This document shows, piece after piece, positions 1-58,292 of a stretch of 64,000 bases of DNA. Positions within the stretch are counted from its first letter, which is position 1. Each line of letters begins with the position of its first letter. The notes below the pieces were generated by a model. It was not told the origin of the DNA. It saw only the letters and a list, made by a program, of their open reading frames with translations, and ran no database searches. The position numbers were made by a program, and so were the translations under genes. Origin of the DNA: Eledone cirrhosa (taxonomy: Eukaryota); contig OZ024743.1 of assembly GCA_964016885.1 (NCBI GenBank), forward strand, positions 375,410,001-375,474,000, read 5' to 3'.

Positions 1-3000
1 ACTCTATAAAATGTCCACACCACCACCAAGTCACATTAACTCTATAAAATGTCTACACCACCACCAAGACACATTAACTCTATAAAATGTCTACACCACC
101 ACCAAGACACATTTACTCTATAAATTGTCTACACCACCACCAAGACACATTCACACTATAAAATGTCTACACCACCACCAAGACACATTAACTCTATAAA
201 ATGTCCACACCACCACCAAGACACATTAACTCTATAAAATGTTTACACCACAACCAAGACACATTAACTCTATAAAATGTCCACACCACCGCCAAGACAC
301 ATTAACTCTATAAAATGTCTACACCACCACCAAGACACATTAACTCTATAAAATGTCCACACCACCACCAAGACACATTCACTCTATAAAATATCTACAC
401 CACAACCAAGACACATTAACTCTATAAAATGTCTACACCACCACCAAGACACATTCACTCTATAAAATGTCTACACCACCACCAAGACACATTCACTCTA
501 TAAAATATCTACACCACAACCAAGACACATTAACTCTATAAAATGTCTACACCACCACCAAGACACATTAACTCTATAAAATGTCTACACCACCACCAAG
601 ACACATTCACTCTATAAAATGTTTACACCACCACCAAGACACATTAACTCTATAAATTGTCTACACCACCACCAAGACACATTCACACTATAAAATGTCT
701 ACACCACCACCAAGACACATTCACACTATAAAACGTCTACACCACCACCAAGACACATTAACTCTATAAAATGTTTACACCACCAAGTCACATTAACTCT
801 ATAAAATGTCTACACCACCACCAAGACACATTAACTCTATAAAATGTCTACACCACCACCAAGACACATTTCCTCTATAAATTGTCTACACCACCACCAA
901 GACACATTCACACTATAAAATGTCTACACCACCACCAAGACACGTTCACTCTATAAAATGTCTACACCACCACCAAGACACATTCACTTTACAAAATGTC
1001 CATACCACCACCAAGACACATTAACTCTATAAAATGTCCACAGCACCACCAAGACACATTAACTCTATAAAATGTTTACACCACCACCAAGTCACATTAA
1101 CTCTATAAACTGTCTAGACCACCACCAAGACACATTAACTCTATAAAATGTCTACACCACCACCAAGACACATTCACATTATAAAATGTCTACACCACCA
1201 CCAAGACACGTTCACTCTATAAAATGTCTACACCACCACCAAGACACACTCACTTTACAAAATGTCCATACCACCACCAAGACACATTAACTCTATAAAA
1301 TGTCTACACCACCACCAAGACACATTAACTCTATAAAATGTTTACACCACCACCAAGACACATTAACTCTCTAAAATGTTTACACCACCACCAAGACACA
1401 TTAACTCTATAAAATGTTTACACCACCACCAAGTCACATTAACTCTATAAACTGGGTAGACCACCACCAAGACACATTAACTCTATAAAATGTCTACACC
1501 ACCACCAAGACACATTCACACTATAAAATGTCTACACCACCACCAAGACACATTCACACTATAAAATGTCTAGACCACCACCAAGACACATTAACTCTAT
1601 AAAATGTCCACACCACAACCAAGACACATTCACTCTATAAAATATCTACACCACCACCAAGACACATTCACACTATAAAATGTCTAGACCACCACCAAGA
1701 CACATTTACTCCATAAAATGTCCACACCACAACCAAGACACATTCACTCTATAAAATGTCTACACCACCACCAAGACACATTCACTCTATAAAATGTCCA
1801 CACCACAACCAGTACACATTCACTCTATAAAATGTCTAGACCACCACCAAGACACATTATCTCTATAAAATGTCCACACCACAACCAAGACACATTCACT
1901 CTATAAAATGTCTACACCACCACCAAGAAACATTCACACTATAAAATGTCTACACCACAACCAAGACACATTCACTCTATAAAATGTCTACACCACCACC
2001 AAGACACATTCACTCTACAAAATATCCACACCACCACCAAGACACATTAACTCTATAAAATGTCCACACCACCACCAAGACACATTAACTCTATAAAATG
2101 TTTACAGGACCACCAAGACACATTAACTCTATAAAATGTTTACACCACCACCAAGACACATTAACTCTATAAAATGTTTACACCACCACCAAGTCACATT
2201 AACTCTATAAAATGTTTACACCACCACCAAGACACATTAACTCTATAAAATGTCCACACCACAACCAAGACACATTCACTCTATAAAATATCTACACCAC
2301 CACCAAGACACATTCACACTATAAAATGTCTAGACCACCACCAAGACACATGTACTCCATAAAATGTCCACACCACAACCAAGACACATTCACTCTATAA
2401 AATGTCTACACCACCACCAAGACACATTCACTCTATAAAATGTCCACACCACAACCAGTACACATTCACTCTATAAAATGTCTAGACCACCACCAAGACA
2501 CATTATCTCTATAAAATGTCCACACCACAACCAAGACACATTCACTCTATAAAATGTCTACACCACCACCAAGACACATTAACTCTATAAATTGTCTACA
2601 CCACCACCAAGACACATTCACACTATAAAATGTCTACACCACCACCAAGACACATTAACTCTATAAATTGTCTACACCACCACCAAGACACATTCACACT
2701 ATAAAACGTCTACACCACCACCAAGACACATTAACTCTATAAAATGTTTACACCACCACCAAGTCACATTAACTCTATAAAATGTCTACACCACCACCAA
2801 GACACATTAACTCTATAAAATGTCTACACCACCACCAAGACACATTTCCTCTATAAATTGTCTACACCACCACCAAGACACATTCACACTATAAAATGTC
2901 TACACCACCACCAAGACACATTAACTCTATAAATTGTCTACACCACCACCAAGACACATTCACACTATAAAACGTCTACACCACCACCAAGACACATTAA

Positions 3001-6000
3001 CTCTATAAAATGTTTACACCACCACCAAGTCACATTAACTCTATAAAATGTCTACACCACCACCAAGACACATTAACTCTATAAAATGTCCACACCACCA
3101 CCAAGACACATTAACTATATAAAATGTCTACACCACCACCAAGACACATTAAGTCTATAAAATGTTTACACCACCACCAAGTCACATTAACTCTATAAAA
3201 TGTCTACACCACAACCAAGACACATTAACTCTATAAAATGTCTACACCACCACCAAGACACATTCACTCTATAAAATGTCCACACCACAACCAAGACACA
3301 TTAACTCTATAAAATGTCCACACCACCACCAAGACACATTAACTCTATAAAATGTCTACACCACCACCAAGACACATTAACTCTATAAAATGTTTACACC
3401 ACCACCAAGTCACATTAACTCTATAAAATGTCTACACCACAACCAAGACACATTAACTCTATAAAATGTCTACACCACCACCAAGACACATTAACTCTAT
3501 AAAATGTCCACACCACCACCAAGACACATTAACTTTATAAAATGTCTACACCACCACCAAGACACATTAACTCTATAAAATGTCTACACCACCATCAAGA
3601 CACATTAACTCTATAAAATGTTTACACCACCACCAAGTCACATTAACTCTATAAAATGTCTACACCACCACCAAGACACTTTAACTCTATAAAATGTTTA
3701 CACCACCACCAAGTCACATTAACTCTATAAAATGTCTACACCACCACCCAGACACATTAACTCTATAAAATGTCTACACCACCACCAAGACACATTAACT
3801 CTATAAAATGTCCACACCACCACCAAGACACATTAACTCTATAAAATGTCTACACCACCACCAAGACACATTAACTCTATAAAATGTCTACACCACCACC
3901 AACACACATTAACTCCATAAAATGTCTACACCACCACCAAGACACATTAACTCTATAAAATGTCCACACCACAACCAAGACACATTAACTCTATAAAATG
4001 TTTACACCACCACCAAGTCACATTAACTCTATAAAATGTCTACACCACCACCAAGTCACATTAACTCTATAAAATGTCTACACCACCACCAAGACACATT
4101 CACACTATAAAATGTCTAGACCACCACCAAGACACATTATCTCTATAAAATGTCCACACCACAACCAAGACACATTCACTCTATAAAATGTCTACACCAC
4201 CACCAAGAAACATTCACACTATAAAATGTCTACACCACAACCAAGACACATTCACTCTATAAAATGTCTACACCACCACCAAGACACATTCACTCTACAA
4301 AATATCCACACCACCACCAATACACATTAACTCTATAAAATGTCCACACCACCACCAAGACACATTAACTCTATAAAATGTTTACAGGACCACCAAGACA
4401 CATTAACTCTATAAAATGTTTACACCACCACCAAGACACATTAACTCTATAAAATGTTTACACCACCACCAAGTCACATTAACTCTATAAAATGTTTACA
4501 CCACCACCAAGACACATTAACTCTATAAAATGTCCACACCACAACCAAGACACATTCACTCTATAAAATATCTACACCACCACCAAGACACATTCACACT
4601 ATAAAATGTCTAGACCACCACCAAGACACATGTACTCCATAAAATGTCCACACCACAACCAAGACACATTCACTCTATAAAATGTCTACACCACCACCAA
4701 GACACATTCACTCTATAAAATGTCCACACCACAACCAGTACACATTCACTCTATAAAATGTCTAGACCACCACCAAGACACATTATCTCTATAAAATGTC
4801 CACACCACAACCAAGACACATTCACTCTATAAAATGTCTACACCACCACCAAGACACATTAACTCTATAAATTGTCTACACCACCACCAAGACACATTCA
4901 CACTATAAAATGTCTACACCACCACCAAGACACATTAACTCTATAAATTGTCTACACCACCACCAAGACACATTCACACTATAAAACGTCTACACCACCA
5001 CCAAGACACATTAACTCTATAAAATGTTTACACCACCACCAAGTCACATTAACTCTATAAAATGTCTACACCACCACCAAGACACATTAACTCTATAAAA
5101 TGTCTACACCACCACCAAGACACATTTCCTCTATAAATTGTCTACACCACCACCAAGACACATTCACACTATAAAATGTCTACACCACCACCAAGACACA
5201 TTAACTCTATAAATTGTCTACACCACCACCAAGACACATTCACACTATAAAACGTCTACACCACCACCAAGACACATTAACTCTATAAAATGTTTACACC
5301 ACCACCAAGTCACATTAACTCTATAAAATGTCTACACCACCACCAAGACACATTAACTCTATAAAATGTCCACACCACCACCAAGACACATTAACTATAT
5401 AAAATGTCTACACCACCACCAAGACACATTAAGTCTATAAAATGTTTACACCACCACCAAGTCACATTAACTCTATAAAATGTCTACACCACAACCAAGA
5501 CACATTAACTCTATAAAATGTCTACACCACCACCAAGACACATTCACTCTATAAAATGTCCACACCACAACCAAGACACATTAACTCTATAAAATGTCCA
5601 CACCACCACCAAGACACATTAACTCTATAAAATGTCTACACCACCACCAAGACACATTAACTCTATAAAATGTTTACACCACCACCAAGTCACATTAACT
5701 CTATAAAATGTCTACACCACAACCAAGACACATTAACTCTATAAAATGTCTACACCACCACCAAGACACATTAACTCTATAAAATGTCCACACCACCACC
5801 AAGACACATTAACTTTATAAAATGTCTACACCACCACCAAGACACATTAACTCTATAAAATGTCTACACCACCATCAAGACACATTAACTCTATAAAATG
5901 TTTACACCACCACCAAGTCACATTAACTCTATAAAATGTCTACACCACCACCAAGACACTTTAACTCTATAAAATGTTTACACCACCACCAAGTCACATT

Positions 6001-9000
6001 AACTCTATAAAATGTCTACACCACCACCCAGACACATTAACTCTATAAAATGTCTACACCACCACCAAGACACATTAACTCTATAAAATGTCCACACCAC
6101 CACCAAGACACATTAACTCTATAAAATGTCTACACCACCACCAAGACACATTAACTCTATAAAATGTCTACACCACCACCAACACACATTAACTCCATAA
6201 AATGTCTACACCACCACCAAGACACATTAACTCTATAAAATGTCCACACCACAACCAAGACACATTAACTCTATAAAATGTTTACACCACCACCAAGTCA
6301 CATTAACTCTATAAAATGTCTACACCACCACCAAGTCACATTAACTCTATAAAATGTCTACACCACCACCAAGACACATTCACACTATAAAATGTCTACA
6401 CCACCACCAAGACACATTAACTCTATAAAATGTTTACACCACCACCAAGACACATTAACTCTATAAAATGTCCACACCACCACCAAGACACATTAACTCT
6501 ATAAAATGTTTACACCACCACCAAGACACATTACCTCTATAAAATGTCCACACCACCACCAAGACACATTAACTCTATAAAATGTTTACACCACCACCAA
6601 GACACATTAACTCTATAAAATGTCCACACCACCACCAAGACACATTAACTCTATAAAATGTCCACACCACCACCAAATCACATTAACTCTATAAAATGTC
6701 TACACCACCACCAAGACACATTCACTATATAAAATGTCCACACCACCACCAAGACACATTAACTCTATAAAATGTCTACACCACAACCAAGACACATTAA
6801 CTCTATAAAATGTCCACACCACCACCAAGTCACATTAACTCTATAAAATGTCTACACCACCACCAAGACACATTAACTCTATAAAATGTCTACACCACCA
6901 CCAAGACACATTTACTCTATAAATTGTCTACACCACCACCAAGACACATTCACACTATAAAATGTCTACACCACCACCAAGACACATTAACTCTATAAAA
7001 TGTCCACACCACCACCAAGACACATTAACTCTATAAAATGTTTACACCACAACCAAGACACATTAACTCTATAAAATGTCCACACCACCACCAAGACACA
7101 TTAACTCTATAAAATGTCTACACCACCACCAAGACACATTAACTCTATAAAATGTCCACACCACCACCAAGACACATTAACTCTATAAAATGTCTACACC
7201 ACCACCAAGACACATTAACTCTATAAAATGTCCACACCACCACCAAGACACATTAACTCTATAAAATGTCCACACCACCACCAAGACACATTCACTCTAT
7301 AAAATATCTACACCACAACCAAGACACATTAACTCTATAAAATGTCTACACCACCACCAAGACACATTCACTCTATAAAATGTCTACACCACCACCAAGA
7401 CACATTCACTCTATAAAATATCTACACCACAACCAAGACACATTAACTCTATAAAATGTCTACACCACCACCAAGACACATTAACTCTATAAAATGTCTA
7501 CACCACCACCAAGACACATTCACTCTATAAAATGTTTACACCACCACCAAGACACATTAACTCTATAAATTGTCTACACCACCACCAAGACACATTCACA
7601 CTATAAAATGTCTACACCACCACCAAGACACATTAACTCTATAAATTGTCTACACCACCACCAAGACACATTCACACTATAAAACGTCTACACCACCACC
7701 AAGACACATTAACTCTATAAAATGTTTACACCACCACCAAGTCACATTAACTCTATAAAATGTCTACACCACCACCAAGACACATTAACTCTATAAAATG
7801 TCTACACCACCACCAAGACACATTTCCTCTATAAATTGTCTACACCACCACCAAGACACATTCACACTATAAAATGTCTACACCACCACCAAGACACGTT
7901 CACTCTATAAAATGTCTACACCGCCACCAAGACACATTCACTTTACAAAATGTCCATACCACCACCAAGACACATTAACTCTATAAAATGTCCACACCAC
8001 CACCAAGACACATTAACTCTATAAAATGTTTACACCACCACCAAGTCACATTAACTCTATAAACTGTCTAGACCACCACCAAGACACATTAACTCTATAA
8101 AATGTCTACACCACCACCAAGACACATTCACATTATAAAATGTCTACACCACCAAGACACGTTCACTCTATAAAATGTCTACACCACCACCAAGACACAT
8201 TCACTTTACAAAATGTCCATACCACCACCAAGACACATTAACTCTATAAAATGTCTACACCACCACCAAGACACATTAACTCTATAAAATGTTTACACCA
8301 CCACCAAGACACATTAACTCTCTAAAATGTTTACACCACCACCAAGACACATTAACTCTATAAAATGTTTACACCACCACCAAGTCACATTAACTCTATA
8401 AACTGTGTAGACCACCACCAAGACACATTAACTCTATAAAATGTCTACACCACCACCAAGACACATTCACACTATAAAATGTCTACACCACCACCAAGAC
8501 ACATTCACACTATAAAATGTCTAGACCACCACCAAGACACATTAACTCTATAAAATGTCCACACCACAACCAAGACACATTCACTCTATAAAATATCTAC
8601 ACCACCACCAAGACACATTCACACTATAAAATGTCTAGACCACCACCAAGACACATTTACTCCATAAAATGTCCACACCACAACCAAGACACATTCACTC
8701 TATAAAATGTCTACACCACCACCAAGACACATTCACTCTATAAAATGTCCACACCACAACCAGTACACATTCACTCTATAAAATGTCTACACCACCACCA
8801 AGACACATTCACTCTACAAAATATCCACACCACCACCAAGACACATTAACTCTATAAAATGTCCACACCACCACCAAGACACATTAACTCTATAAAATGT
8901 TTACACGACCACCAAGACACATTAACTCTATAAAATGTTTACACCACCACCAAGACACATTAACTCTATAAAATGTTTACACCACCACCAAGTCACATTA

Positions 9001-12000
9001 ACTCTATAAAATGTTTACACCACCACCAAGACACATTAACTCTATAAAATGTCCACACCACAACCAAGACACATTCACTCTATAAAATATCTACACCACC
9101 ACCAAGACACATTCACACTATAAAATGTCTAGACCACCACCAAGACACATGTACTCCATAAAATGTCCACACCACAACCAAGACACATTCACTCTATAAA
9201 ATGTCCACACCACAACCAGTACACATTCACTCTATAAAATGTCTAGACCACCACCAAGACACATTATCTCTATAAAATGTCCACACCACAACCAAGACAC
9301 ATTCACTCTATAAAATGTCTACACCACCACCAAGACACATTAACTCTATAAATTGTCTACACCACCACCAAGACACATTCACACTATAAAATGTCTACAC
9401 CACCACCAAGACACATTAACTCTATAAATTGTCTACACCACCACCAAGACACATTCACACTATAAAACGTCTACACCACCACCAAGACACATTAACTCTA
9501 TAAAATGTTTACACCACCACCAAGTCACATTAACTCTATAAAATGTCTACACCACCACCAAGACACATTAACTCTATAAAATGTCTACACCACCACCAAG
9601 ACAGATTTCCTCTATAAATTGTCTACACCACCACCAAGACACATTCACACTATAAAATGTCTACACCACCACCAAGACACGTTCACTCTATAAAATGTCT
9701 ACACCACCACCAAGACACATTCACTTTACAAAATGTCCATACCACCACCAAGACACATTAACTCTATAAAATGTCCACAGCACCACCAAGACACATTAAC
9801 TCTATAAAATGTTTACACCACCACCAAGTCACATTAACTCTATAAACTGTCTAGACCACCACCAAGACACATTAACTCTATAAAATGTCTACATCACCAC
9901 CAAGACACATTCACACTATAAAATGTCTACACCACCACCAAGACACGTTCACTCTATAAAATGTCTACACCACCACCAAGACACATTCACTTTACAAAAT
10001 GTCCATACCACCACCAAGACACATTAACTCTCTAAAATGTCTACACCACCACCAAGACACATTAACTCTATAAAATGTTTACACCACCACCAAGACACAT
10101 TAACTCTCTAAAATGTTTACACCACCACCAAGACACATTAACTCTCTAAAATGTTTACACCACCACCAAGACACATTAACTCTATAAAATGTCCACACCA
10201 CCACCAAGACACATTAACTCTATAAAATGTCCACACCACCACCAAGACACATTAACTCTATAAAATGTCTACACCACAACCAAGACACCTTAACTCTATA
10301 AAATGTCCACACCACCACCAAGTCACATTAACTCTATAAAATGTCTACACCACCACCAAGACACATTAACTCTATAAAATGTTTACACCACCACCAAGTC
10401 ACATTAACTCTATAAACTGTGTAGACCACCACCAAGACACATTAACTCTATAAAATGTCTACACCACCACCAAGACACATTCACACTATAAAATGTCTAC
10501 ACCACCACCAAGACACATTCACACTATAAAATGTCTAGACCACCACCAAGACACATTAACTCTATAAAATGTCCACACCACAACCAAGACACATTCACTC
10601 TATAAAATATCTACACCACCACCAAGACACATTCACACTATAAAATGTCTAGACCACCACCAAGACACATTTACTCCATAAAATGTCCACACCACAACCA
10701 AGACACATTCACTCTATAAAATGTCTACACCACCACCAAGACACATTCACTCTATAAAATGTCCACACCACAACCAGTACACATTCACTCTATAAAATGT
10801 CTAGACCACCACCAAGACACATTATCTCTATAAAATGTCCACACCACAACCAAGACACATTCACTCTATAAAATGTCTACACCACCACCAAGAAACATTC
10901 ACACTATAAAATGTCTACACCACAACCAAGACACATTCACTCTATAAAATGTCTACACCACCACCAAGACACATTCACTCTACAAAATATCCACACCACC
11001 ACCAAGACACATTAACTCTATAAAATGTCCACACCACCACCAAGACACATTAACTCTATAAAATGTTTACACGACCACCAAGACACATTAACTCTATAAA
11101 ATGTTTACACCACCACCAAGACACATTAACTCTATAAAATGTTTACACCACCACCAAGACACATTAACTCTATAAAATGTTTACACCACCACCAAGACAC
11201 ATTAACTCTATAAAATGTTTACATCACCACCAAGTCACATTAACTCTATAAAATGTCTACACCACAACCAAGACACATTAACTCTATAAAATGTCTACAC
11301 CACAACCAAGACACCTTAACTCTATAAAATGTCCACACCACCACCAAGTCACATTAACTCTATAAAATGTCTACACCACAACCAAGACACATTAACTCTA
11401 TAAAATGTCCACACCACCACCAAGACACATTAACTCTATAAAATGTCTACACCACAACCAAGACACCTTAACTCTATAAAATGTCCACACCACCACCAAG
11501 TCACATTAACTCTATAAAATGTCTACACCACAACCAAGACACATTAACTCTATAAAATGTCCACACCACCACCAAGACACATTAACTCTATAAAATGTCT
11601 ACACCACCACCAAGACACATTAACTCTATAAAATGTCTACACCACCACCAAGACACATTAACTCTATAAAATGTCCACACCACCACCAAGACACATTAAC
11701 TCTATAACATCTTTACACCACCACCAAGACACATTAACTCTATAAAATGTCCACACCACCACCAAGACACATTAACTCTATAAAATGTCTACACCACCAC
11801 CAAGACACATTAACTCTATAAAATGTCCACACCACCACCAAGACACATTAACTCTATAAAATGTTTACACCACCCCCAAGACACATTAACTCTATAAAAT
11901 GTCCACACCACCACCAAGACACATTAACTCTATAAAATGTTTACACCACCACCAAGACACATTAACTCTATAAAATGTCCACACCACCACCAAGACACAT

Positions 12001-13135
12001 TAACTCTATAAAATGTCTACACCACCACCAAGACACATTAACTCTATAAAATTTCTACACCACCACCAAGACACATTAACTCTATAAAATGTCCACACCA
12101 CCACCAAGACACATTAACTCTATAAAATGTCTACACCACCACCAAGACACATTAACTCTATAAAATGTCCACACCACCACCAAGACACATTAACTCTATA
12201 AAATGTCCATACCACCACCAAGACACATTAACTCTATAAAATGTCCACACCACCACCAAGACACATTAACTCTATAAAATGTTTACACCACCTCCAAGAC
12301 ACATTAACTCTATAAAATGTCTACACCACTACCAAGACACATTAACTCTATAAAATGTCTACACCACCACCAAGACACATTCACTCTATAAAATGTCTAC
12401 ACCACCACCAAGACACATTAACTCTATAAAATGTCTACACCACCACCAAGACACATTAACTCTATAAAATGTCTACACCACAACCAAGACACATTCACTC
12501 TATAAAATGTCTACACCACAACCAAGACACATTAACTCTTTAAAATGTCTACACCACCACCAAGACACATTAACTCTATAAAATGTCTACACCACAACCA
12601 AGACTCATTAACTCTATAAAATGTCTCCACCACCACCAAGACACATTCACTCTATAAAATGTCTACACCACAACCAAGACACATTAACTCTATAAAATGT
12701 CTACACCACAACCAAGACACATTCACTCTATAAAATGTCTACACCACCACCAAGACACATTAACTCTATAAAATGTCTACCCCACCACCAAGACACATTA
12801 ACTCTATAACATGTCTACACCACAACCAAGACACATTAACTCTATAAAATGTCTACACCACCACCAAGACACATTAACTCTATAAAATGTCTACACCACC
12901 ACCAAGACACATTCACTCTATAAAATGTCTACACCACCACCAAGACACATTAACTCTATAAAATGTCTACACCACCACCAAGACACATTAACTCTATAAA
13001 ATGTCTACACCACCACCAAGACATATTCACTCTATAAAATGTCTACACCACAACCAAGACACATTAACTCTATAAAATGTCTACACCACCACCAAGACAC
13101 ATTCACACTATAAAATGTTTACACCACCACTACCA
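1..13135. repeat. 38-bp tandem satellite array (~345 monomers, open at the left edge), consensus ACTCTATAAAATGTCTACACCACCACCAAGACACATTA
   Basis: Continuous head-to-tail 38-nt units with few variant positions. Two 35-bp monomers lacking one CAC (~770-790, ~8140-8155). Degenerate monomers at ~13115-13240. Confidence 0.98.
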
Positions 13136-13802
13136 AAATACATCCACTTTACAAAACGTCCACATCGCCACTGGGGCATGTTCACTCTACAGAATGCCTA
13201 TATTACTTCCAAGACACATACGTTCCTCAAAATGTCCAAATCAACGAGAAATAACAAAAAAAAAACCTGCAGTGATGTTGAAAAAGAATTTAACTTCTAA
13301 ATCTGAAAGAATCCAGGACGATTCAGAGATCCATCGAAGATCTGAAAAGGCAAATAAAATGTTTCTACTCGAGTCAAATATAAGGTACTACAACACTAGC
13401 CTACTTTTGACAACGTGTTCTTGACAAGGGAGCCTCTACACACCTATGCAGCTTGCTAGAAATATCAGCCAATCCTCCTTCAAACATTTGAAAATGATAC
13501 TTTTGGAACTCGGGTAGCAGAGAGTCGGAAAAAATACTGCTAGGAATTCAAATCTGAAGATTATCTACAATATATATAATTGGCAATGAAATATAGGGTC
13601 GTTTCGTTTTACCCACAAATTGATGGATCCTATACACCTGGTGGAGTTGTAGGGGTGTCGTCGTGGTATACAGTGTTTGTTGGGTATTAAAACCCAGTGG
13701 AGCTGATTTCTTCCAGAGAAAGGAGAAGGAAAATGAAAGAGAGGTGAACAAAAGGTGTTTTTGAGGACTCTGCCCCTACGACCGTCTTGGTAATAAATGG
13801 GC

Positions 13803-13842
13803 GAAGAAGAAGAAGAAGAAGAAGAAGAAGAAGAAGAAGAAG

Positions 13843-13891
<49 letters not shown>

Positions 13892-13948
13892 GCAACAACA
13901 ACGACGACGACGACGACGACGACAACACAACAACAACAACAACAACAA
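13803..13948. repeat. Compound trinucleotide microsatellite (GAA)n(CAA)n(CGA)n
   Basis: Directly visible; explains the poly-R/T/C/S/V ORFs in the track. Confidence 0.95.
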
Positions 13949-14466
13949 AAGTACTTGACTGGTACTTTATTTGTCAACCTCGAAAGGAGGAAAGGCAAAG
14001 TTCACCTCAGCCTACCAATAGCAGGAACAAATATCGTAAAGCATTAAAATCTGTAGATTTTCCCCGAGAAATGGTTTTGGCAATAATATGTAGGGTCATT
14101 TCTTTTTACCTAGCAATCAATGTCTATTGAGATAATATCTGTTACCGAAGATAAAAAGAACTGTACGTATTATTCATTCTGGTTTTAATGAAAATGTATC
14201 TTTTGTGGCGACTACTCAGTGATACGGTGAAAATAAACTATATTTTAATCTTGTGTAAGGCTATTTATAAATTCGATTTATATGCTGCCAGACCGGAATA
14301 GAAAGAAAGTACAGATAACACGTGAAGAGAAGGAGAATGACGAAAATGAAAGCAACAAATACAAAAAAGAAAGTTGTGAAGGGGGGATGGAAGAGATAGA
14401 GAGAATAATTGTGTTATATTAGTATATCCTCAGTATAATATAGGAATGAACGACCACAGCGTCAGA

Positions 14467-14517
<51 letters not shown>

Positions 14518-14529
<12 letters not shown>

Positions 14530-15260
14530 AAGAATCAAAGAACTGTTCAAAATATTTTTGTGCTTACAGCTGTTTCCTCCAAACCGAGGTTTGGATTCTT
14601 CGGAGCAATTTATTAATGAATGGACAGTTATATGACCTCCTTTTCACCCAAGAGACATACAGATACATATGCAAATATTGTGGGTCAACATTCATTACAG
14701 CATTTAGAGTGGCAGTACACACTTAGAGATTACATTCATATTAAAAGGTACAATCAAAAATCAAAAATACAGGTTAAAATACATGAAAATAAGCGGTTAT
14801 ATAGTGCAAATGTTATATGTGTGGCAAGCACGTGCGTCTTGTTTATATAGTGTGGCAGAGAGTTACGTGTAGTAGAAGCACTTAGGTAGGTAAACAAGAG
14901 TGTTAGGTTGGTTGATCTGGTGGCAAATTCTCTATATGATTGTTATAGTCTGTGTGTGGAGAAATGATATAAGCATTAAAAATAGTGCAAAATATGAATG
15001 TAATCTCTAAGTGTGTACTGCCACTCTAAATGCTGTAATGAATGTTGACCCACAATATTTGCATATGTATCTGTATGTCTCTTGGGTGAAAAGGAGGTCA
15101 TATAACTGTCCATTCATTAATAAATTGCTCCGAAGAATGCAAACCTCGGTTTGGAGGAAACAGTTGTAAGCTCAAAAATGTTTTGAACAGTTCTTTGATT
15201 CTTATATTTCATATAACTGCTCTGTAAATCATCTGATGTTTTTACATTGAGCTACTTAAC
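14518..15260. mobile_element. PLE pseudo-LTR remnant as an inverted repeat (arms 14518-14742 and 14991-15214), between (TA)n tracts
   Basis: ~225-bp near-identical reverse-complement arms, each with a hammerhead-like motif. A diverged homolog lies at ~56435-56870. Confidence 0.7.
14561..14607 (-). ncRNA. Minimal type-I hammerhead-like motif (CCGAAGA core variant)
   Basis: Minus strand: UGCU-CCGAAGA-a-UCCAAACC-uc-GGUUUGGA-g-GAAA-CAGCUG-UA-AGCA. Stems I and II and a palindromic stem III are present. Mirror copy at 15126-15171 (+). Confidence 0.6.
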
Positions 15261-15379
15261 TTACTGGTAATAAGGTAGTAATATATTACTGCCTACCACT
15301 ATTTAGGGTTTGTATATAAAAAAATATATATAACTGCAAAAGGTTTTTGTATTTACATAACCATAAATAGTATAATTTA

Positions 15380-15432
<53 letters not shown>

Positions 15433-15435
<3 letters not shown>

Positions 15436-15660
15436 AAGGCTGGTAAAATTCCCGAGATCCATGGACGAGTTCTCTTCAGCGGTCTCTGTCCCTCATTATC
15501 GCTGCCATGTCCTGCATCTCCAACAGACCAGTGTCTGTCCTGAGGGCATCAACATACGTTAACCTTGGTCTTCATCTTCTAGTGTGTCCATGTAGGGGCT
15601 CCCAAAGGAGTACTGAGTGCAATGTGAACTCTGGATGTCGGTGAGCATGTCCAGCTAACC
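15433..15660 (-). mobile_element. RTE-clade LINE 3' fragment (ORF C-terminus, decayed)
   Basis: Translation [11 protein letters not shown]...[27 protein letters not shown]...MRDRD matches the typical RTE C-terminal pattern; internal stops; bounded by (TA)n. Confidence 0.7.
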
Positions 15661-15721
15661 TAATATAAATATATATATATATATATATATTTATATTAGA
15701 AAATAGAAAATAGAATATTTG

Positions 15722-15826
<105 letters not shown>

Positions 15827-15831
15827 ATATG

Positions 15832-15886
<55 letters not shown>

Positions 15887-15894
15887 GTTATTCC

Positions 15895-16070
15895 GGGTTG
15901 AATCGGAGGTAACCACAGTAAGTAAGGTATTCAATACATAGCAGAGTATAAAAGTTTAATATAGATGAGATTCGACAGGACTAGAACTCTTTCATTGTTT
16001 AGAAATCATCAGGAATCATGATGATTTCTAAAGAATGAAACAGTTCTAGTCCTGTAGAATCTCATCTATA
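15895..16070 (-). mobile_element. PLE pseudo-LTR fragment ending in a ~110-bp fold-back hairpin (15960-16070) with HHR cores on both arms
   Basis: Imperfect inverted arms. Minus arm has CUGAUGA-uuucuaaacaau-GAAA-gaguuc-UA. Related copy at 23380-23485 (+). Confidence 0.55.
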
Positions 16071-16085
16071 TATATATATATATAT

Positions 16086-16290
16086 ATAGGAACGATTAGG
16101 ACCCCGACGGCTGAGCTCAAACCGTTTCGACGGCTAATTCTGGACTAAATTTAGTCCAGAATTAGCCGTCGAAACGGCTTGAGCTCACCCGTCGGGGTCC
16201 TAATCGTTCCTATTACCCACTCTACTACCCTAAGTATTGAGTACTTTGGTGCGTTATGGTCCACCTGGTTCCTTACCACATTTCCTTCGT

Positions 16291-16292
<2 letters not shown>
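16086..16292 (+). mobile_element. 128-bp palindrome plus ~80-bp tail; PLE pseudo-LTR-type fragment inserted in (TA)n
   Basis: 16086-16213 is palindromic with 2 mismatches. A second copy with the same tail lies at 32341-32543. Confidence 0.7.
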
Positions 16293-16351
<59 letters not shown>

Positions 16352-16355
<4 letters not shown>

Positions 16356-17467
16356 ACATCCACCAACTCCTCTCCTTCGTTGTGGATAATGCATTATTCA
16401 ATTTCCTCGGCCACACGTACAAACAGATCTCTGGACTACCTATGGGCTCTAGTCTGTCCGGCATACTTGCGATCTCGGACATGGACCACCTGGAACGCAA
16501 GGCACTCAACACCTGCCAACCCAACGCCGTCGCCTTCTACTCCAGATACGTTGATGACATACTGATTCTCACTTCTTCCCGGGAGATGGCGAATGAAATT
16601 CACCAAATCTTTAACGACACTGACCATCACGTCGATTTCACCATCGAACACCCTGAAGAAGACGGGTCACTCGCCCTCCTCGACTTCCGTATCAACATCT
16701 CGGAAGAAGGAGACATAAACACCACCTTCTACCGCAAGGCAGCGTGCAAGGACTTATTTGTGCATTACAACTCAGCCCTCCCCAACAACGCTAAGAGAGG
16801 CTATGTCCTAAATGAACTTACACGGATCACTAATAGATGCAGCGACCCGATGGGTGGTCTCACCCATACCACGCAATTCCGTAATCTACTCAAGTCTAAT
16901 GGATATCCCAAGCGACTGATTAACGGAATTAGAGACCCCAGACCCAATAGACAGACACCCACTAGAAACTTAGATAAAAACAAGTGCCTCTTTAAAATCC
17001 CTCACCTGAGTGAATATACCACGAACGCCATCCGCAGGGCCATACGGAGGGAGGGACTTGATATACATTTGGCCCACACAGGACCTTCGCTCCGAAGATG
17101 CCTCTCCACCAAACCCGACGAGTCAGATGGGATGTGCTCCCTCAGCAACTGCCCGATACGGGGGGCAGATTGCCTATGCACCTATGTCGTATATAAGATT
17201 CAATGCGATAAATGTAACAAGTTTTACATAGGTAGCACCATCCGACCCCTACATGTTCGTATCAAGGAACATGTCAACACCAACGCATCTTCCTTCCGTA
17301 AACACATCCTTAAATGCGGAAACCCACAGGGCAGACCCTTGGTCACAGTCCTAGCGACTGAACGCAGCATCGGATCCTTAAGGATAAAGGAAGCACTTGT
17401 TATTAAGAACCTCAGACCCCCACTTAACAACCGGGCTGAGAGAAATGAGCTGACATGGCTAATCTAA
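16352..17467 (+). pseudogene. 5'-truncated Penelope-like element ORF (RT C-terminal half + GIY-YIG endonuclease)
   Basis: QISGLPMGSSLS, RYVDD, LALLDFRI, YRK motifs; VVYKIQCDKCNKFYIGST...RIKEH...KEALVI..P.LN. Starts abruptly at a (TA)n tract, so the track's first 32 aa are spurious. Confidence 0.92.
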
Positions 17468-18218
<751 letters not shown>

Positions 18219-26007: not shown

Positions 26008-26127
26008 GAGGGGGCAGGCGGATAGACAGAGACAGAGAGACTGTGGTGCTGACACCGGGGAGACCACTAATCATGGGAGTACTCAATGCATGGGGAGATG
26101 TAGAGTGGGTATAGAAATATATGAAAT

Positions 26128-26183
26128 CCCGACCGCGGCGCCAAGCGGTTCCTGTTTTTGTGTTCAACAAGCATTGTCAAGGG
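26128..26183 (-). ncRNA. Degenerate type-I HHR in a PLE pseudo-LTR fragment
   Basis: CCC-UUGACAA-...-GGAA-CCGC-uuggcgcc-GCGG-UC-GGG, followed by the same tacccactctac...ttgagtact tail as 16214-16245. Confidence 0.45.
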
Positions 26184-31294: not shown

Positions 31295-32090
31295 GATGAA
31301 GGACTAGCGTCCGAAACGTTAAGACCCTCTTCCTGCTATATCAAGCGTTAACCTAATATATACCTTCCATATACTGAACGGATCGTGTTGTTATTTCTGT
31401 TTACCTTTTACATACATATACATATATATATATGACTTCTAACCAAAATCTCCAAACATCCGTGGAACTTACCAACTTTTCAACCATCCTCTTACACCAT
31501 CACCTATACAACTCACCCACACACACACCCAACAAAAAAATTTTCTAATCCACACGCCACCCACACCCACAACACGCTTAAACCACACACACGTGCTTCC
31601 CACCACATATTTACACCCTCCGCCTCCTGATTCCTCTCCCCCCACCCCCCTATCCACACACGCACAGACACTCCGACCCACAAAAACACCCCCCACACAC
31701 ACCTTCCTGAACATGCAACCCCGTTCTTCCCCCAACCCTCACTTTCACATACACACACACACACACACACGCACACCTAACCACACACACCACCTTCAGC
31801 CCTCCCCGCTCGGACACCCCGTCTCCCTCTCCCCACTCCACCCGCCACCACCCCTACTCACCCCACACCCTTCCACCACCTGTTTATCCCCCTTTTAATT
31901 TCAGTTTATTTTGATCATGCCTTTATTTTTTAATTTTCTCATTCCTTGTATTTTGATCATGCTTTATTTTTATTTATTATATTTTTTGTCTTTATTTGTT
32001 AATTTTTCATTCGCACCGTTTCCTTTCGCTATATGTCTCTCCACCACTCCCCTACACACCTTTTGAACTCTGTTCCCACACACTTCTCAC

Positions 32091-32120
32091 CTGAAGAAGG
32101 GCTTATGCCCGAAACGTCGT
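32091..32120 (+). ncRNA. Hammerhead core in a CA-rich PLE pseudo-LTR remnant (~31430-32210)
   Basis: CUGAAGA-a-GGGC-uuau-GCCC-GAAA-CG-UC; stem I is only 2 bp. Confidence 0.5.
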
Positions 32121-32285
32121 CCCCCACCTACCCCCCACTCTCCTGAGCGTGAATTTAATAAACATTTATCGTACTGCCTCTCTGTTCTGTCCCTGTTCAA
32201 TTTTTCATTATATATATATATACATACATATATATGCATATACTTACATACATACATACATATATACATACATACATACATATAC

Positions 32286-32340
<55 letters not shown>

Positions 32341-32343
<3 letters not shown>

Positions 32344-32541
32344 GGAACCAGTAAGACCCCGACAGCTGAGCTCAAGCCGTTTCGACGGCTAATTCTGGAC
32401 TCAGAGTCCAGAATTAGCCGTCGAAACGGCTTGAGCTCAGCTGTCGGGGTCTTACTGGTTCCTATTACCCACTCTACTACCTCAAGTATTGAGTACTTTG
32501 GTGCGTTATGGTCCACCTGGTTCCTTACCACATTTCCTTCG

Positions 32542-32543
<2 letters not shown>
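32341..32543 (+). mobile_element. Perfect 125-bp palindrome (62+1+62) plus tail, within (TA)n
   Basis: Arms are exact reverse complements; same family as 16086-16292. Confidence 0.75.
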
Positions 32544-46420: not shown

Positions 46421-49400
46421 TTAACGGTAATTCACATATTGTGCCAAATTTGCGGACCAATGGACGCGTCGTCCGCTTCTCGTGACTGGAGATGAAACAG
46501 GTGGCTCGCTGGGACAGCAATCTGTTGGAGTTTCTGGTGTAGAGACTGTAACTGTATCCATGGTGGCTTTTTTTAATCTGTCCACGCTGACAGAATTCTG
46601 TTTACCATATAGATCGAGAATAAAATATTTCGGATATTTTTTTAGAACACGATAAGGGCCAGAATATGGAGGTCGAAGATGAGCTGAGATGGTGTCGTTT
46701 CGAACGAAAACGTGTGTCCAAACATCAATGTCTGAAGGTACATGTGTGGCCGTGTTCTGTTGACGGGTGTTTGCAGGAGCAAGGTGAGACATATATTGTC
46801 GAAGACGGTGTACGTATGATCCTGGGTCTGGAACATCCTGAGGAGAGATGGGAGCAACCATCTGACCAGGTAGAACCAGGGTGGTGCCGTACACTAATTC
46901 TGCAGGTGTGTGTCCGAATTCCTCCTTAACGGTGGATCGAACCAGTGGGTCTTGTCTGGATATGCTTTTATTGCAGCTTTCAATTGACGAAGGAATCTTT
47001 CCACGAGACCATTAGCTTGCGGGTGATAAGCTGTCGTGCGGATGTGTTTACATCCTAACAGGCGAGTCAGTTCCCTGAGAGGTGGGAGTCAAACTGGCGT
47101 CCTCTGTCCGTTGTTATCTTCGCTGGGGCGCCATAACGTGATATCCAGTGTAAAACCAAAGTTTTAGCGACTGTTTCCGCTGAGGTATCATTTATGGGAA
47201 AAGCCTCAGGCCAACGAGAAAATCGATCAATGCAGGTGAGCAAGTGTGTGTAGTTCTGTGATGGTGGTAGAGGTCCGACGATGTCGATATGCACATGATG
47301 AAAACGTGCATCAGGTTGCGCGAATGTGCCGAGTGGAGTTTTGATGTGTCTGTGGACTTTGGCTTTCTGGCAGGCAATGCAGCTCCTGGACCAGTCGCGC
47401 ACGTCCTTGTTAATGTTTGTCCACACAAAACGAGCAGAGATGAGTTTCTGTGTAGCCCGGATTCCCGGGTGAGACAAGCAGTGTAAAGCAGAAAAAACTT
47501 GTCGACGATGCATCTGTAGTACGTACGGTCGTTCATGACCGGTAGAAATGTCGCACCAAATTTGTCCCGGAGAAGAAGGAATGGGAACTTGCTGAAACTT
47601 GAGGGATGGCGAATCTCGGAGTTTGATAAACTCTTCGTCAGTCTCTTGGTCAGCTGCGATCTGTTGAAGGTCGATGCCTGAATGCACATGTATTGCGTTC
47701 AGCTGGATTCGGGACAGGGCGTCGGCTGCTACGTTGTCTGATCCCTTGATATGCCGAATATCAGTTGAATATTGGGAGACAAAATCCAGGTGTCGGAGTT
47801 CTTTCGGTGAATGTCGATCAGGTTTGGTACGGAACGCATAAATTAATGGTTTATGGTCCGTGTAGATCACCAAATCTGATCCTTCGAGCATGTGCCGAAA
47901 ATGCTTAACCGAAAGATAGGTTGCCAAGAGTTCGCGGCCAAAGGTACTGTATTTCGTTTCTGCCGGTTGCAACCGCTTAGAAAAGAAGGATAAGGGTTGC
48001 CACACGCCGTCGACATGTTGTTGTAGAACGCCTCCAACCCCCGTGTCTGATGCGTCCACTAGCACTGAAAGAGGAGCGCCAGACCTGGGGAAAACGAGCA
48101 TGGAAGCGTTTGCCAACATTTCCTTCAGGCGGTTAAAAGATTATTCTTCCTCGTTTAGAGTGATCTCTTCGTTTTTGCGAGTCCGGTTACGAAGAAGGTC
48201 CGTGAGGAGTCTGGCTGCGTCGGAAAAATGCGGGATGAACCGCCTATAAAAATTCACCAGACCGAGGAATTCACGCAGTTTCCGAAGTGATGTAGGTGCA
48301 GGAAAACTGCGGATAGCTTCTACTTTCTCGGGAAGTGGGCGAATGCCGTCTTTATCGATGATGTGCCCGAGAAAGGACAGTGAAAGGACGCTGAGAAGGC
48401 ACTTGCTGGGTTGATGATGATACCGTACTCAGTCAAACGTCGGAAAAGGAGATCTAAGTGCTTCTCGTGTTCATTCTCGGAAGCACTTGCTACCCGTACG
48501 TCGTCAATATACGCGTATATGAAGGGTAGATCGCGTAACACGGTGTCGATAAACCGCTGAAAAGTTTGTGCAGCGTTGCGCAGACCGAACGGCATTCGCA
48601 GGAATTCGAATAAACCGAACGGTGTTGTGATTGCCGTTTTCGGAATATCTGCAGGCTCCATAGGTATCTGGTTATATGCACGCACCAAATCTACCTTGGA
48701 AAAGATACGTGCGCCTTGCAGAGAGGCAGAAAAATCGTGCAGGTGAGATACAGGGTAATTATCGGGCACTGTAGAATTGTTAAGTGCACGATAATCCCCA
48801 CATGGTCGCCAATCATTCTCGGCTTTTTGGGAACAAGGTGTAGGGGTGCAGACCAGTTGCTGGAGGAAGGGCGAATGATTCCGAGGTCCAGCATGTGTTG
48901 GAACTCATGCTTGGCGATTCTCAATCGGTCTGGAGGCAGTCTCCTTGGTCGGGCAGCTGTGGGTGGTCCCTTTGTCTCGATGTGGTGCGTGACACTATGC
49001 TTAATAGGACCATCCTTAAATACCGGGCGAGTGATGTCTGGATATTTCTGGAGAATGCCGTTGTACCGTGAAGGCTCTGACGGGTAAATTACAGGGCTCA
49101 CTGTGGATTGCGTGGTAAATATACCTCTCACAGTGAGGTTTGTGGTGGTGTCGATAAGCCTCCGGTTCTTCATATCCACCAGAAGGTTGAAGTGGTGGAG
49201 AAAATCGGCTCCTAGGATCGGTGTTGGCAGGTCTGCCACGACGAACACCCATTGAAAACGCCGCCTCAGGCCTAAATTGAGGATCAGAGACTTCTCCCCG
49301 AAAGTCGGAATTGACGATTGGTTCACTGCCTGCAGAAAGGACGGGGTTGGGTGTCTTTTGCCCGAGATTAGTGAAACAGGAATAACACTAACCTGGGCTC

Positions 49401-49779
49401 CTGTATCCACGAGGTAACGGATGCCTGTCGCCTGGTCGTTAATAAAAAAAAATAGACGACTTTTCTTTTCAGTACCAGGGGTGAACGTCGTCGCTAGGCC
49501 CTGGGTGGCATTCCGGAAAGAGCACGGGGCTTTGCACTTAGATGCCTGTGCGCCGAAATTTGTGTGATACCAGCAGAGGTTGCCAGGCACACGATTTTGA
49601 CTGGGACTACTGGATCTTCGACTGTGAAAAGGCCTGGATCGACTGTTGCTGCGTCGCCGGTGTGTTTGAAAGGTCAAGTTCTCTACTTGATTCGAAAGGG
49701 CTTTAATTTGACCAGCCCGCTCTCTGATCATAGCCCGCAGCTCTGAAATCTCGGCCTCTGTCGTTTGTGACATGTCCAT
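46421..49779 (-). pseudogene. Gypsy gag(C-terminal)-pol remnant split by frameshifts
   Basis: CWYHTNFG..ASKC..PC knuckle; protease LVDTGA; [10 protein letters not shown] and YIDD; RNase [20 protein letters not shown]; integrase H...HPG...CxxC, DIVGPLP, TDRGRQF, PYSGPY. Confidence 0.95.
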
Positions 49780-49804
49780 GTTAATATTTTCTTAGGTGCT
49801 GTCT

Positions 49805-56524: not shown

Positions 56525-57227
56525 ATTTTTTATGTTTGTACATACAGTTGATCTCCTACTCAACGCAAGAGACATATAGATACATATATATAAATTGATG
56601 TACAGTGTGGAGCGACATATATTATACTATACTATATTTGTAGAGTAACTCAAATTAAGACAAAATAAAAATACATGCGACAGATAACACAGATAATGCA
56701 GGAGAATAGTTCAATGATCAGATCTAGTAGATACTGTATGCGTTAGTCATACATGGAGCATGCAAATGTGTCTCATTTATATAAGAATATTGTGTGGCAA
56801 TGTATTACATGTAATACAAGCACATTAAGCGGGTAAGCAAGAGTATTATGGTGGTTGCAGTGGGGGGGGAGCATATATATTCTTATATATATATGTACAT
56901 ATATATATACATATATATATGTACATATATATATGAAAACAAATAGCGAAACGAAATTAAATTTCGTTTCGTTTGTAACTCACTTTTGTATGACTGACGC
57001 TTAAACAATTAAGTTAGAAATGTACATCCACATATGTATACTGAAATACTAGTATGCATATGAATACACACACGTGTACATATGTAGATGTACCGAGTTT
57101 TTCACTGGACACTTTACTGTGAGTGTCCAGCTATTCTGTATGTAAACACACAGACAAACCGGTTTTTAGAGTCATACTGGTTTTCGAGGAAACACCTTTC
57201 CTCTATTCTCCAGAAAGCCAGACAAGG

Positions 57228-57272
57228 AATATTGGACTAGTTTCGATGTTGTTACATCTCATCAGCAATATT
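57228..57272 (-). ncRNA. Minimal type-I hammerhead ribozyme (canonical core)
   Basis: AAUAUUG-CUGAUGA-GAUGU-aaca-ACAUC-GAAA-CUAG-UC-CAAUAUU. Confidence 0.9.
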
Positions 57273-57693
57273 TACCTATCTTCCGGCCTTTCTAGAGAAT
57301 CGTAAAAGCACATATCGTTATATGCTTTTTCTATGAAAATTAGTAGTGGGCAGACTAATTTGCATAGAGCGTGAGTACGTACCGGTTCAGCGGAGACGAT
57401 AAAAACAGATAACGAAACGAAATTAAATTTTGTTTCGTTTGTAACTCACTTTTGTATGACTGACGCTTAAACAATTAAGTTAAAAATGTACATCCACATA
57501 TGTATACTGAAATACTAGTATGCATATGAATACACACACGTGTACATATGTAGATGTACCGAGTTTTTCACTGCACACTTTACTGTGAGTGTCCAGCTAT
57601 TCTGTATGTAAACACACAGACAAACCGGTTTTTAGAGTCATACTGGTTTTCGAGGAAACACCTTTCCTCTATTCTCCAGAAAGCCAGACAAGG

Positions 57694-57738
57694 AATATTG
57701 GACTAGTTTCGATGTTGTTACATCTCATCAGCAATATT
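57694..57738 (-). ncRNA. Minimal type-I hammerhead ribozyme, second tandem copy
   Basis: Identical to 57228-57272, 466 bp away. Confidence 0.9.
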
Positions 57739-58013
57739 TACCTATCTTCCGGCCTTTCTAGAGAATCGTAAAAGCACATATCGTTATATGCTTTTTCTAT
57801 GAAAATTAGTAGTGGGCAGACTAATTTGCATAGAGCGTGAGTACGTACCGGTTCAGCGGAGACGATAAAAACAAATAACGAAACGAAATTAAATTTCGTT
57901 TCGTTTGTAACTCACTTTTGTATGACTGACGCTTAAACAATTAAGTTAGAAATGTAAAAAGCATATAACGATATGTGCTTTTACGATTCTCTAGAAAGGC
58001 CGGAAGATAGGTA

Positions 58014-58058
58014 AATATTGCTGATGAGATGTAACAACATCGAAACTAGTCCAATATT
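58014..58058 (+). ncRNA. Minimal type-I hammerhead ribozyme, inverted copy
   Basis: aatattg ctgatga gatgt aaca acatc gaaa ctag tc caatatt, read directly on the + strand. Confidence 0.9.
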
Positions 58059-58292
58059 CCTTGTCTGGCTTTCTGGAGAATAGAGGAAAGGTGTTTCCTC
58101 GAAAACCAGTATGACTCTAAAAACCGGTTTGTCTGTGTGTTTACATACAGAATAGCTGGACACTCACAGTAAAGTGTCCAGTGAAAAACTCGGTACATCT
58201 ACATATGTACACGTGTGTGTATTCATATGCATACTAGTATTTCAGTATACATATGTGGATGTACATTTCTAACTTAATTGTTTATATATATA

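Follow-up and report, generated by a model that had tools for sequence, protein, structure and literature searches.

The window, the whole 64,000-nucleotide stretch of the Eledone cirrhosa genome analyzed here, contains two short palindromes, at positions 16086–16213 (copy 1) and 32341–32465 (copy 2). When each is compared with its own reverse complement, 124 of 128 positions match in copy 1 and 124 of 125 in copy 2; the two are 92% alike, their differences being mostly mirrored in both arms, and each is flanked by (TA)n at both ends and bears a 77-nt tail at one of them. They are short head-to-head stub insertions of a Hydra-type Penelope-like element (PLE) in (TA)n. The element is numbered here from +1, the A of TT/TC-AGTCC in loop II of its hammerhead ribozyme, which is also the predicted start of its RNA.

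The tail-less arm of copy 1 (16086–16149, minus strand) spans element positions of about −3 to +61, with the complement of +1 at 16146. Its tailed arm (16150–16213, plus strand) contains the predicted RNA start, A 16153, followed by GAAA at 16171–16174, stem III, and a predicted cleavage site after C16193; the tail itself (16214–16290, plus strand) lies between the two fixed 3' ends of the family and leads into (TA)n. In copy 2 the tail-less arm (32341–32401, minus strand) ends exactly at +1 (32401), and the tailed arm (32405–32465, plus strand; predicted cleavage after C32445) starts at +1 (32405) and is followed by the tail (32466–32542, plus strand) and (TA)n. Between the arms is an untemplated CAG (32402–32404), which gives each arm one extra, cap-like G before +1 and leaves one base between; the parent of this subfamily has T at −1. 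A preliminary description had read the right arm as GCCGTC-GAAA-CGGCT-TGAGCTC-AGCYG-TC-GGGG, the 3' half of a type I hammerhead of a PLE, with CTGAnGA missing from both palindromes. We read the arms in the same way, and the assignment to a PLE hammerhead is supported; Rfam did not call a hammerhead at either palindrome, where the 3' half alone is present. The two insertions are, as had been noted, self-complementary and different from each other, but the common apex ascribed to them holds only loosely, being shifted by a few bases (about −3 in copy 1; +1 plus CAG in copy 2).

Copies 1 and 2 belong to what we call family 1. Family 2, which served as a control, is represented by a stub of like design at 15886–16071 on the minus strand, with a palindrome at 15959–16071, a tail at 15886–15958, and its apex at the 5' edge of stem I; it retains a whole canonical hammerhead, which sits right at the predicted RNA start. 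Since stubs of the two families also adjoin at a second locus (L006), the families pile up in shared (TA)n tracts. A minus-strand sequence at 26128–26183 had been put forward as a relative of the palindromes with a degenerate whole hammerhead and the same tail. The degenerate hammerhead is there (TTGACAA core, GGAA for GAAA), but only short tail motifs are shared, and with no blastn match to copies 1 and 2 at E ≤ 0.01 the sequence represents a different, third and distantly related family and is not the parent. The motif ATTGAGTAC is common to the otherwise unlike tails of families 1 and 2 and of the window at 26040–26110 (minus strand), and is a candidate signal near the start sites of reverse transcription.

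Several other features were recorded in the window. Near copy 2, on its left side, a canonical minimal hammerhead (32090–32125, plus strand; CTGAAGA, a GGGC/GCCC stem, GAAA, and GTC) ends another PLE-like 3' region. Two 466-bp tandem units and one inverted arm at 57002–58284 each contain a whole hammerhead (Rfam HH9, below threshold), with the octamer ATGCAAAT upstream of the ribozyme, and are retrozyme-like. A non-LTR retrozyme was rejected as an identity for family 1, which has a coding parent and stubs with half a hammerhead, as against non-coding tandem units each with a whole one. The region 14518–15215 is a head-to-head insertion whose hammerhead-like motif has CCGAAGA as its core and 8 bp in stem II, the junction lying far upstream of the ribozyme. 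A 38-bp unit is repeated about 340 times across positions 1–13000, in an array whose strand skew is strong, and broken gypsy-type pol pieces (protease, reverse transcriptase [RT], RNase H, and integrase, recognized by eye) occupy 46421–49791 on the minus strand.

Family 1 was surveyed by pattern searches of the 3.0-Gb genome, and the copies fetched came mostly from the first 35 Mb of contig C1. A 19-mer from the arm has 37,277 matches (control, 0) and the tail end 22,312, and the 10,736 close head-to-head junctions genome-wide, against 5 for a reversed control pattern, exclude chance. The outer ends of the arms are near-constant, with two fixed 3' ends at about +61 and +138, one per arm. The first 50 of the 10,736 junctions fall into 30 types, the commonest occurring 8 times (hand count), and the inversions thus arise anew at each insertion. 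High copy number and near-constant outer ends would also be seen in a MITE-like family descended from one palindromic master, or might be produced by fold-back artefacts of assembly, but a MITE is expected to have one fixed internal junction. In addition, the arms co-vary by subfamily, a non-palindromic parent with an intact frame exists, and the parent flank is also present in contigs of a public run, as are variable joints spanning the apex. Junction diversity across subfamilies refutes a MITE-like master, and we attach next to no weight to this pair of explanations. Descent from such a master and randomly placed apices were two of the outcomes that the preliminary description had itself set against its reading; neither of these two is the case, as the apices are clustered.

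Non-palindromic parental copies, which the preliminary description had proposed to seek, were found. Their 17 distinct arms (23 rows, 6 duplicates) have TTGAnAA in 12 cases, CTGAGAA in 4, and GTGAGAA in 1, so that the CTGAnGA predicted for the parent occurs in none of them; TTGAnAA is the U3-A8 hammerhead core reported in PMC4209133. One parental locus (L042) has a 3,118-bp tandem unit and a 786-codon open frame with YRDD and IY..YIG motifs (identified by eye). Its architecture, a single ORF encoding RT and then a GIY-YIG endonuclease between pLTRs, is that of an EN+ PLE, and both the inverted 5'-truncated copy and the one-sided tail, which are traits of such elements, are present here. The protein of this frame had no match in Pfam or PDB sequence searches. 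It contains the Hydra-clade motifs SDKTG, CNCPDRSIC, one Cys between IY and YIG, CNLC, and CKH; as to the other features of that clade, (TA)n flanks are present, RWR stands for RWK, and the unit is 3.1 kb as against <3 kb. On comparison of motifs with section 11 of PMC8557442, the parent is a Hydra-type PLE, and a Neptune-like identity was dropped after that comparison. The window has a 5'-truncated PLE at 16353–17467 (plus strand), consisting of the RT end and GIY-YIG with two cysteines between the motifs (Pfam RVT_1 and GIY-YIG); it was rejected as the parent, since the parent frame matches only the two tails in the window by tblastn, and it is unrelated to the palindromes.

The parents of subfamilies A and B have a predicted three-stem type I hammerhead fold with TTGAnAA, GAAA, GUC, and a 36-nt loop II; subfamily C, with a C3-A8 mismatch, folded otherwise. 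Exact matches in the genome fall from 37,277 at +7 to 17,544 at +1 and 4,342 at −7, the last a lower bound, as longer patterns lose variants. Among 102 sampled arms, essentially those first listed among the matches to the arm 19-mer, 46 reach +1, 18 reach −6, 17 reach −10, and 16 reach −60. Thus 84 of the 102 end between about +7/+8 and −5, within 13 nt of the initiator-like A, and upstream of this wall only 2 of the 18 further-reaching arms end before −60. In the parental arms of family 1, TATTTAAA starts at −29 and TT/TC-AGT lies at the wall; in subfamily C the TATA is poorer (TATTCATA), but the wall is unchanged. A core promoter of RNA polymerase II (Pol II) has its TATA box about 30 nt before the initiator. 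We take TATTTAAA and the TATAAATA of family 2 to be TATA-like, and the A at +1 to be initiator-like, from their resemblance to these consensus motifs.

In the folded parent the wall sits on the 3' strand of the apical hairpin of extended stem II. Clustering of apices at this position would follow if RT halted in stem II and the cDNA then folded back, the ribozyme fold setting the apex. We consider such a stall very unlikely: few ends fall in the lower helix (+11 to +16), the stronger one, there are almost no ends in the 50 nt upstream, an extra G stands at +1, many arms are non-nested (see below), and the wall of family 2 lies 5' of stem I. Family 2 (17,196 genome matches) has TATAAATA starting at −30, and its +1, the A in CC-AGATT, falls outside stem II, bordering stem I on its 5' side. 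Of 85 arms, 79 reach +10, 39 reach +1, 26 reach −10, and 24 reach −60, so that 53 of the 79 stop between +10 and −9 and then 2 of 26 over the next 50 nt. With this wall at TATA+30 and outside stem II, the common factor of the two families is promoter-like spacing and not a helix. The earlier proposal that stem II sets the apex is thus borne out in that apices are non-random and lie near loop II, but not in the cause that it assigned; and a role of the ribozyme fold in placing apices, denied at stem II, seemingly applies to a minority at the cleavage site.

Evidence on the nature of +1 comes from the base that precedes it. The parents have T or C at −1. Among the first 100 of 521 matches (hand tally), the base that precedes +1 in the arms, after C, is G in 57, C in 31, and A in 12. 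At 20 loci fetched from the G rows, 16 of 22 arms have an untemplated G, and in the other 6 the G is ambiguous and possibly templated. The untemplated set includes two perfect GACTC-GAGTC junctions, and zero-loop junctions with the extra G on both arms occur at L206, L212, and copy 2. A control for G at +2 gave 16 G and 84 C, and is confounded by templated CCGTC. An untemplated G marks the capped 5' ends of L1 and SVA, according to the portion of PMC4859970 used here, and we infer from the genomic sequence that the A at +1 is a capped Pol II start. The spread of arm ends from +8 to −5, with about half reaching +1, means that trimming or several starts must be assumed. The tail-less arms of L002:1431 and L016 start nearly alike about 61 nt upstream of +1, possibly at an upstream RNA start or stop.

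The relative reach of the two arms bears on whether one or two cDNAs are involved. Two-arm junctions could be parsed for 81 of 135 tail ends; the other 54 were left out because the insert was long, parsing failed, or no inverted arm lay within reach. In 37 of the junctions the tail-less arm extends further 5', in 25 the tailed arm does so, and 19 are equal or ambiguous; for differences of at least 5 nt the counts are 24 and 7, with about two parse artefacts on each side as judged by eye. There is no overlap whatever between the arms at six loci (L016, L035, L047, L124, L127, and L140), and overlaps of 1–6 nt are found in 37 of the 81 junctions. The preliminary description had explained the inversions by snap-back self-priming. 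In the form of this model weighed here, one cDNA reaches the RNA 5' end, folds, and copies itself to the inner fixed site; on this account non-nested copies would be later asymmetric deletions of unstable palindromes. Self-priming has been proposed for PLE palindromes in the part of PMC3846280 drawn on here, and would accord with the short overlaps and with arms that are usually of one haplotype, subfamily sites being identical in both arms in 70 of 80 insertions. Later deletion could mimic some of the longer tail-less arms, and 44 of the 81 junctions, taken alone, are compatible with snap-back too. However, snap-back can begin only on the tailed arm and cannot supply sequence missing from it, so that the 37 junctions with a longer tail-less arm could not be made in this way. 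The loci without overlap and the zero-loop junctions with an extra G on both arms also count against it, as do two insertions (L050 and L148) whose arms carry linked alleles of two subfamilies. Further, long single arms (L010, L024, and L040) end at the inner site beside (TA)n, and the inner site thus behaves as a priming site. We hold snap-back to be improbable as the source of these inversions. The asymmetry, the arms without overlap, and the chimeras are all consistent with twin priming, with one RNA, or RNAs of a single source, as the usual template; the matching arms of the 70 insertions fit one RNA, but snap-back as well.

Substitutions confined to one arm cluster at +44, +36, and +26, with G44 in 8 of 80 insertions and G36 changed to C in 3, including copy 1. 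These clusters may be RT errors or mutation hot spots. The G/C difference at +36 was considered as a sign of two templates and discarded, the C allele never being present in both arms.

A minor class of apices lies at the predicted cleavage site. At L158 both arms end at +42, just after GUC, and 261 junctions in the genome lie near this site, roughly 2% as many as in the start-site class. Both arms end at +42 with an untemplated, mostly A/T insert in 20 of the first 50 among the 261 (hand tally); 15 are blunt and ambiguous because of a CG overlap, 2 are half, and 13 extend further. A pattern covering +43 to +45 found 180 junctions; among the first 50 of these (hand tally), arms end at +42 beside an untemplated base, both of them in 16 junctions and one of them in 9, while 19 are ambiguous, 6 extend further upstream, and none has both arms ending at +43 to +45. 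All 20 of the cleavage-site junctions fetched have the usual two outer ends, and several subfamilies are represented. Such apices seem to reflect RNA cut by the whole hammerhead after C41. They might instead mark an RT stop at the foot of stem III, which in the parent is 6 bp long and begins two bases 5' of the cleavage site; this alternative concerns the +42 class alone. Apices of family 2, in which stem III is weak, do not peak at the cleavage site (of 30 junctions, 1 is exact on both arms and 1 on one arm), as a stop would predict; the 19 of 50 junctions made ambiguous by the CG overlap, and the lack of RNA reads at the cleavage site in the lizard PLE study, as far as the excerpted parts of PMC11167929 go, can also be cited in its favor. 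A stall should, however, copy the unpaired C41, and yet among junctions with untemplated inserts the stop is at G42 (25 of 50), one at C41 being rare; moreover, a short RNA is predicted to fold a different hairpin. An RT stop strikes us as unlikely, though by no means far-fetched, and cleavage is the reading that we carry forward for this class.

The explanation that we prefer for the palindromes, with a probability of roughly two in three, is that both ends of a break in (TA)n prime cDNA, that each cDNA runs to the RNA 5' end, and that the two are then joined. The element RNA would be started by Pol II at the A at +1 and capped. Both ends of the cut (TA)n DNA would prime reverse transcription, and the fixed ends at about +61 and +138 would be its start sites, the short cDNAs presumably coming from the 5' pLTR copy and the long ones from the 3' pLTR copy. 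Both cDNAs would run off the RNA 5' end, lose a few terminal bases, and then be joined through microhomology or small fills. The remaining approximately 2% of stubs would derive from RNA cut by the whole hammerhead. With the predicted start and its promoter inside loop II, the whole ribozyme could form only in transcripts that read through a pLTR. PLE inversion apices would then amount to a genomic record of RNA 5' ends, in which capped starts leave an extra G and hammerhead cuts leave A/T additions, a generalization for which we see an even chance.

The palindromes are an ordinary product of a known class of element and an unusually clear read-out of the probable mechanism. The origin of tandem and inverted PLE insertions and the cutting of hammerheads in vivo are treated as open in the parts of PMC8557442, PMC4209133, and PMC11167929 used here, and thousands of independent junctions now yield base-level predictions: a start at +1, a cut after +41, and extension of both target ends. 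If these are true, twin priming on a double-strand break is the source of head-to-head inversions in PLEs, the U3-A8 hammerhead of the PLE cleaves in the germ line, and the position of the promoter in loop II restricts ribozyme folding to the read-through (3') copy, so that the RT-start region of the transcript stays uncut. Start sites and ribozyme activity in other PLE families could be charted in this way with no more than genome sequence.

Inverted truncated copies, tails, palindromic junctions, pLTR promoters (described in the consulted portions of PMC2377424 and PMC3846280), pLTR hammerheads, and the self-priming proposal are already known. With the Hydra clade, as presented in the section drawn on from Craig et al. 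2021 (PMC8557442), the element shares a single ORF, DKT, the CxCx5C linker, the lack of CCHH, and CxxC and CxH near the C-terminus, together with a hammerhead, (TA)n targeting, an inverted 5'-truncated copy, and a one-sided tail. It differs in its 3.1-kb unit, in RWR for RWK, in a tail of about 77 nt as against 30–40, in its U3-A8 hammerhead, and in having the predicted promoter within a 36-nt loop II; the same section treats the origin of the inverted structures and the role of the hammerhead as unresolved. The elements of Arkhipova et al. 2013 (PMC3846280) likewise have head-to-head inversions with palindromic junctions and TATA and Inr-like motifs in the pLTR. The part of that study used here proposes self-priming, probably on an antisense template, whereas the apices of the present family map to predicted 5' ends of sense-strand RNA, with an extra G and many non-nested arms.

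For the Anolis Poseidon element PAc, the portion of Frangieh et al. 2024 (PMC11167929) available for comparison reports that the purified protein cleaves and extends both target strands in vitro, and that two internal RT start sites on the RNA bound the tail. Two internal RT starts, extension of both strands (here predicted), and AT-rich targets are thus common to the two systems; PAc has no RNA reads at the hammerhead cut in the data given there, whereas a small genomic class ends exactly at this position here. That portion of the paper does not take up the end points of the cDNAs or the formation of inversions. The hammerheads of PMC4209133, for which that paper is without in vivo evidence of cleavage, share the U3-A8 core variant, a long bulged stem II, G10.1-C11.1, and a palindromic loop III. 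Unlike in those hammerheads, stem III is 6 bp here, so that a monomer could fold. In a literature search of partial coverage, we found nothing that ties PLE apices to start sites or RNA 5' ends or that applies twin priming to PLEs.

In twin priming by L1, two primers from one break give rise to an inversion, the second primer acting at variable internal sites and the arms being non-duplicating. The two-primer inversion and an extra G marking a capped 5' end would be shared with the present family. The difference is that here both start sites are fixed and both cDNAs would reach the same 5' end, and the product is a palindrome.
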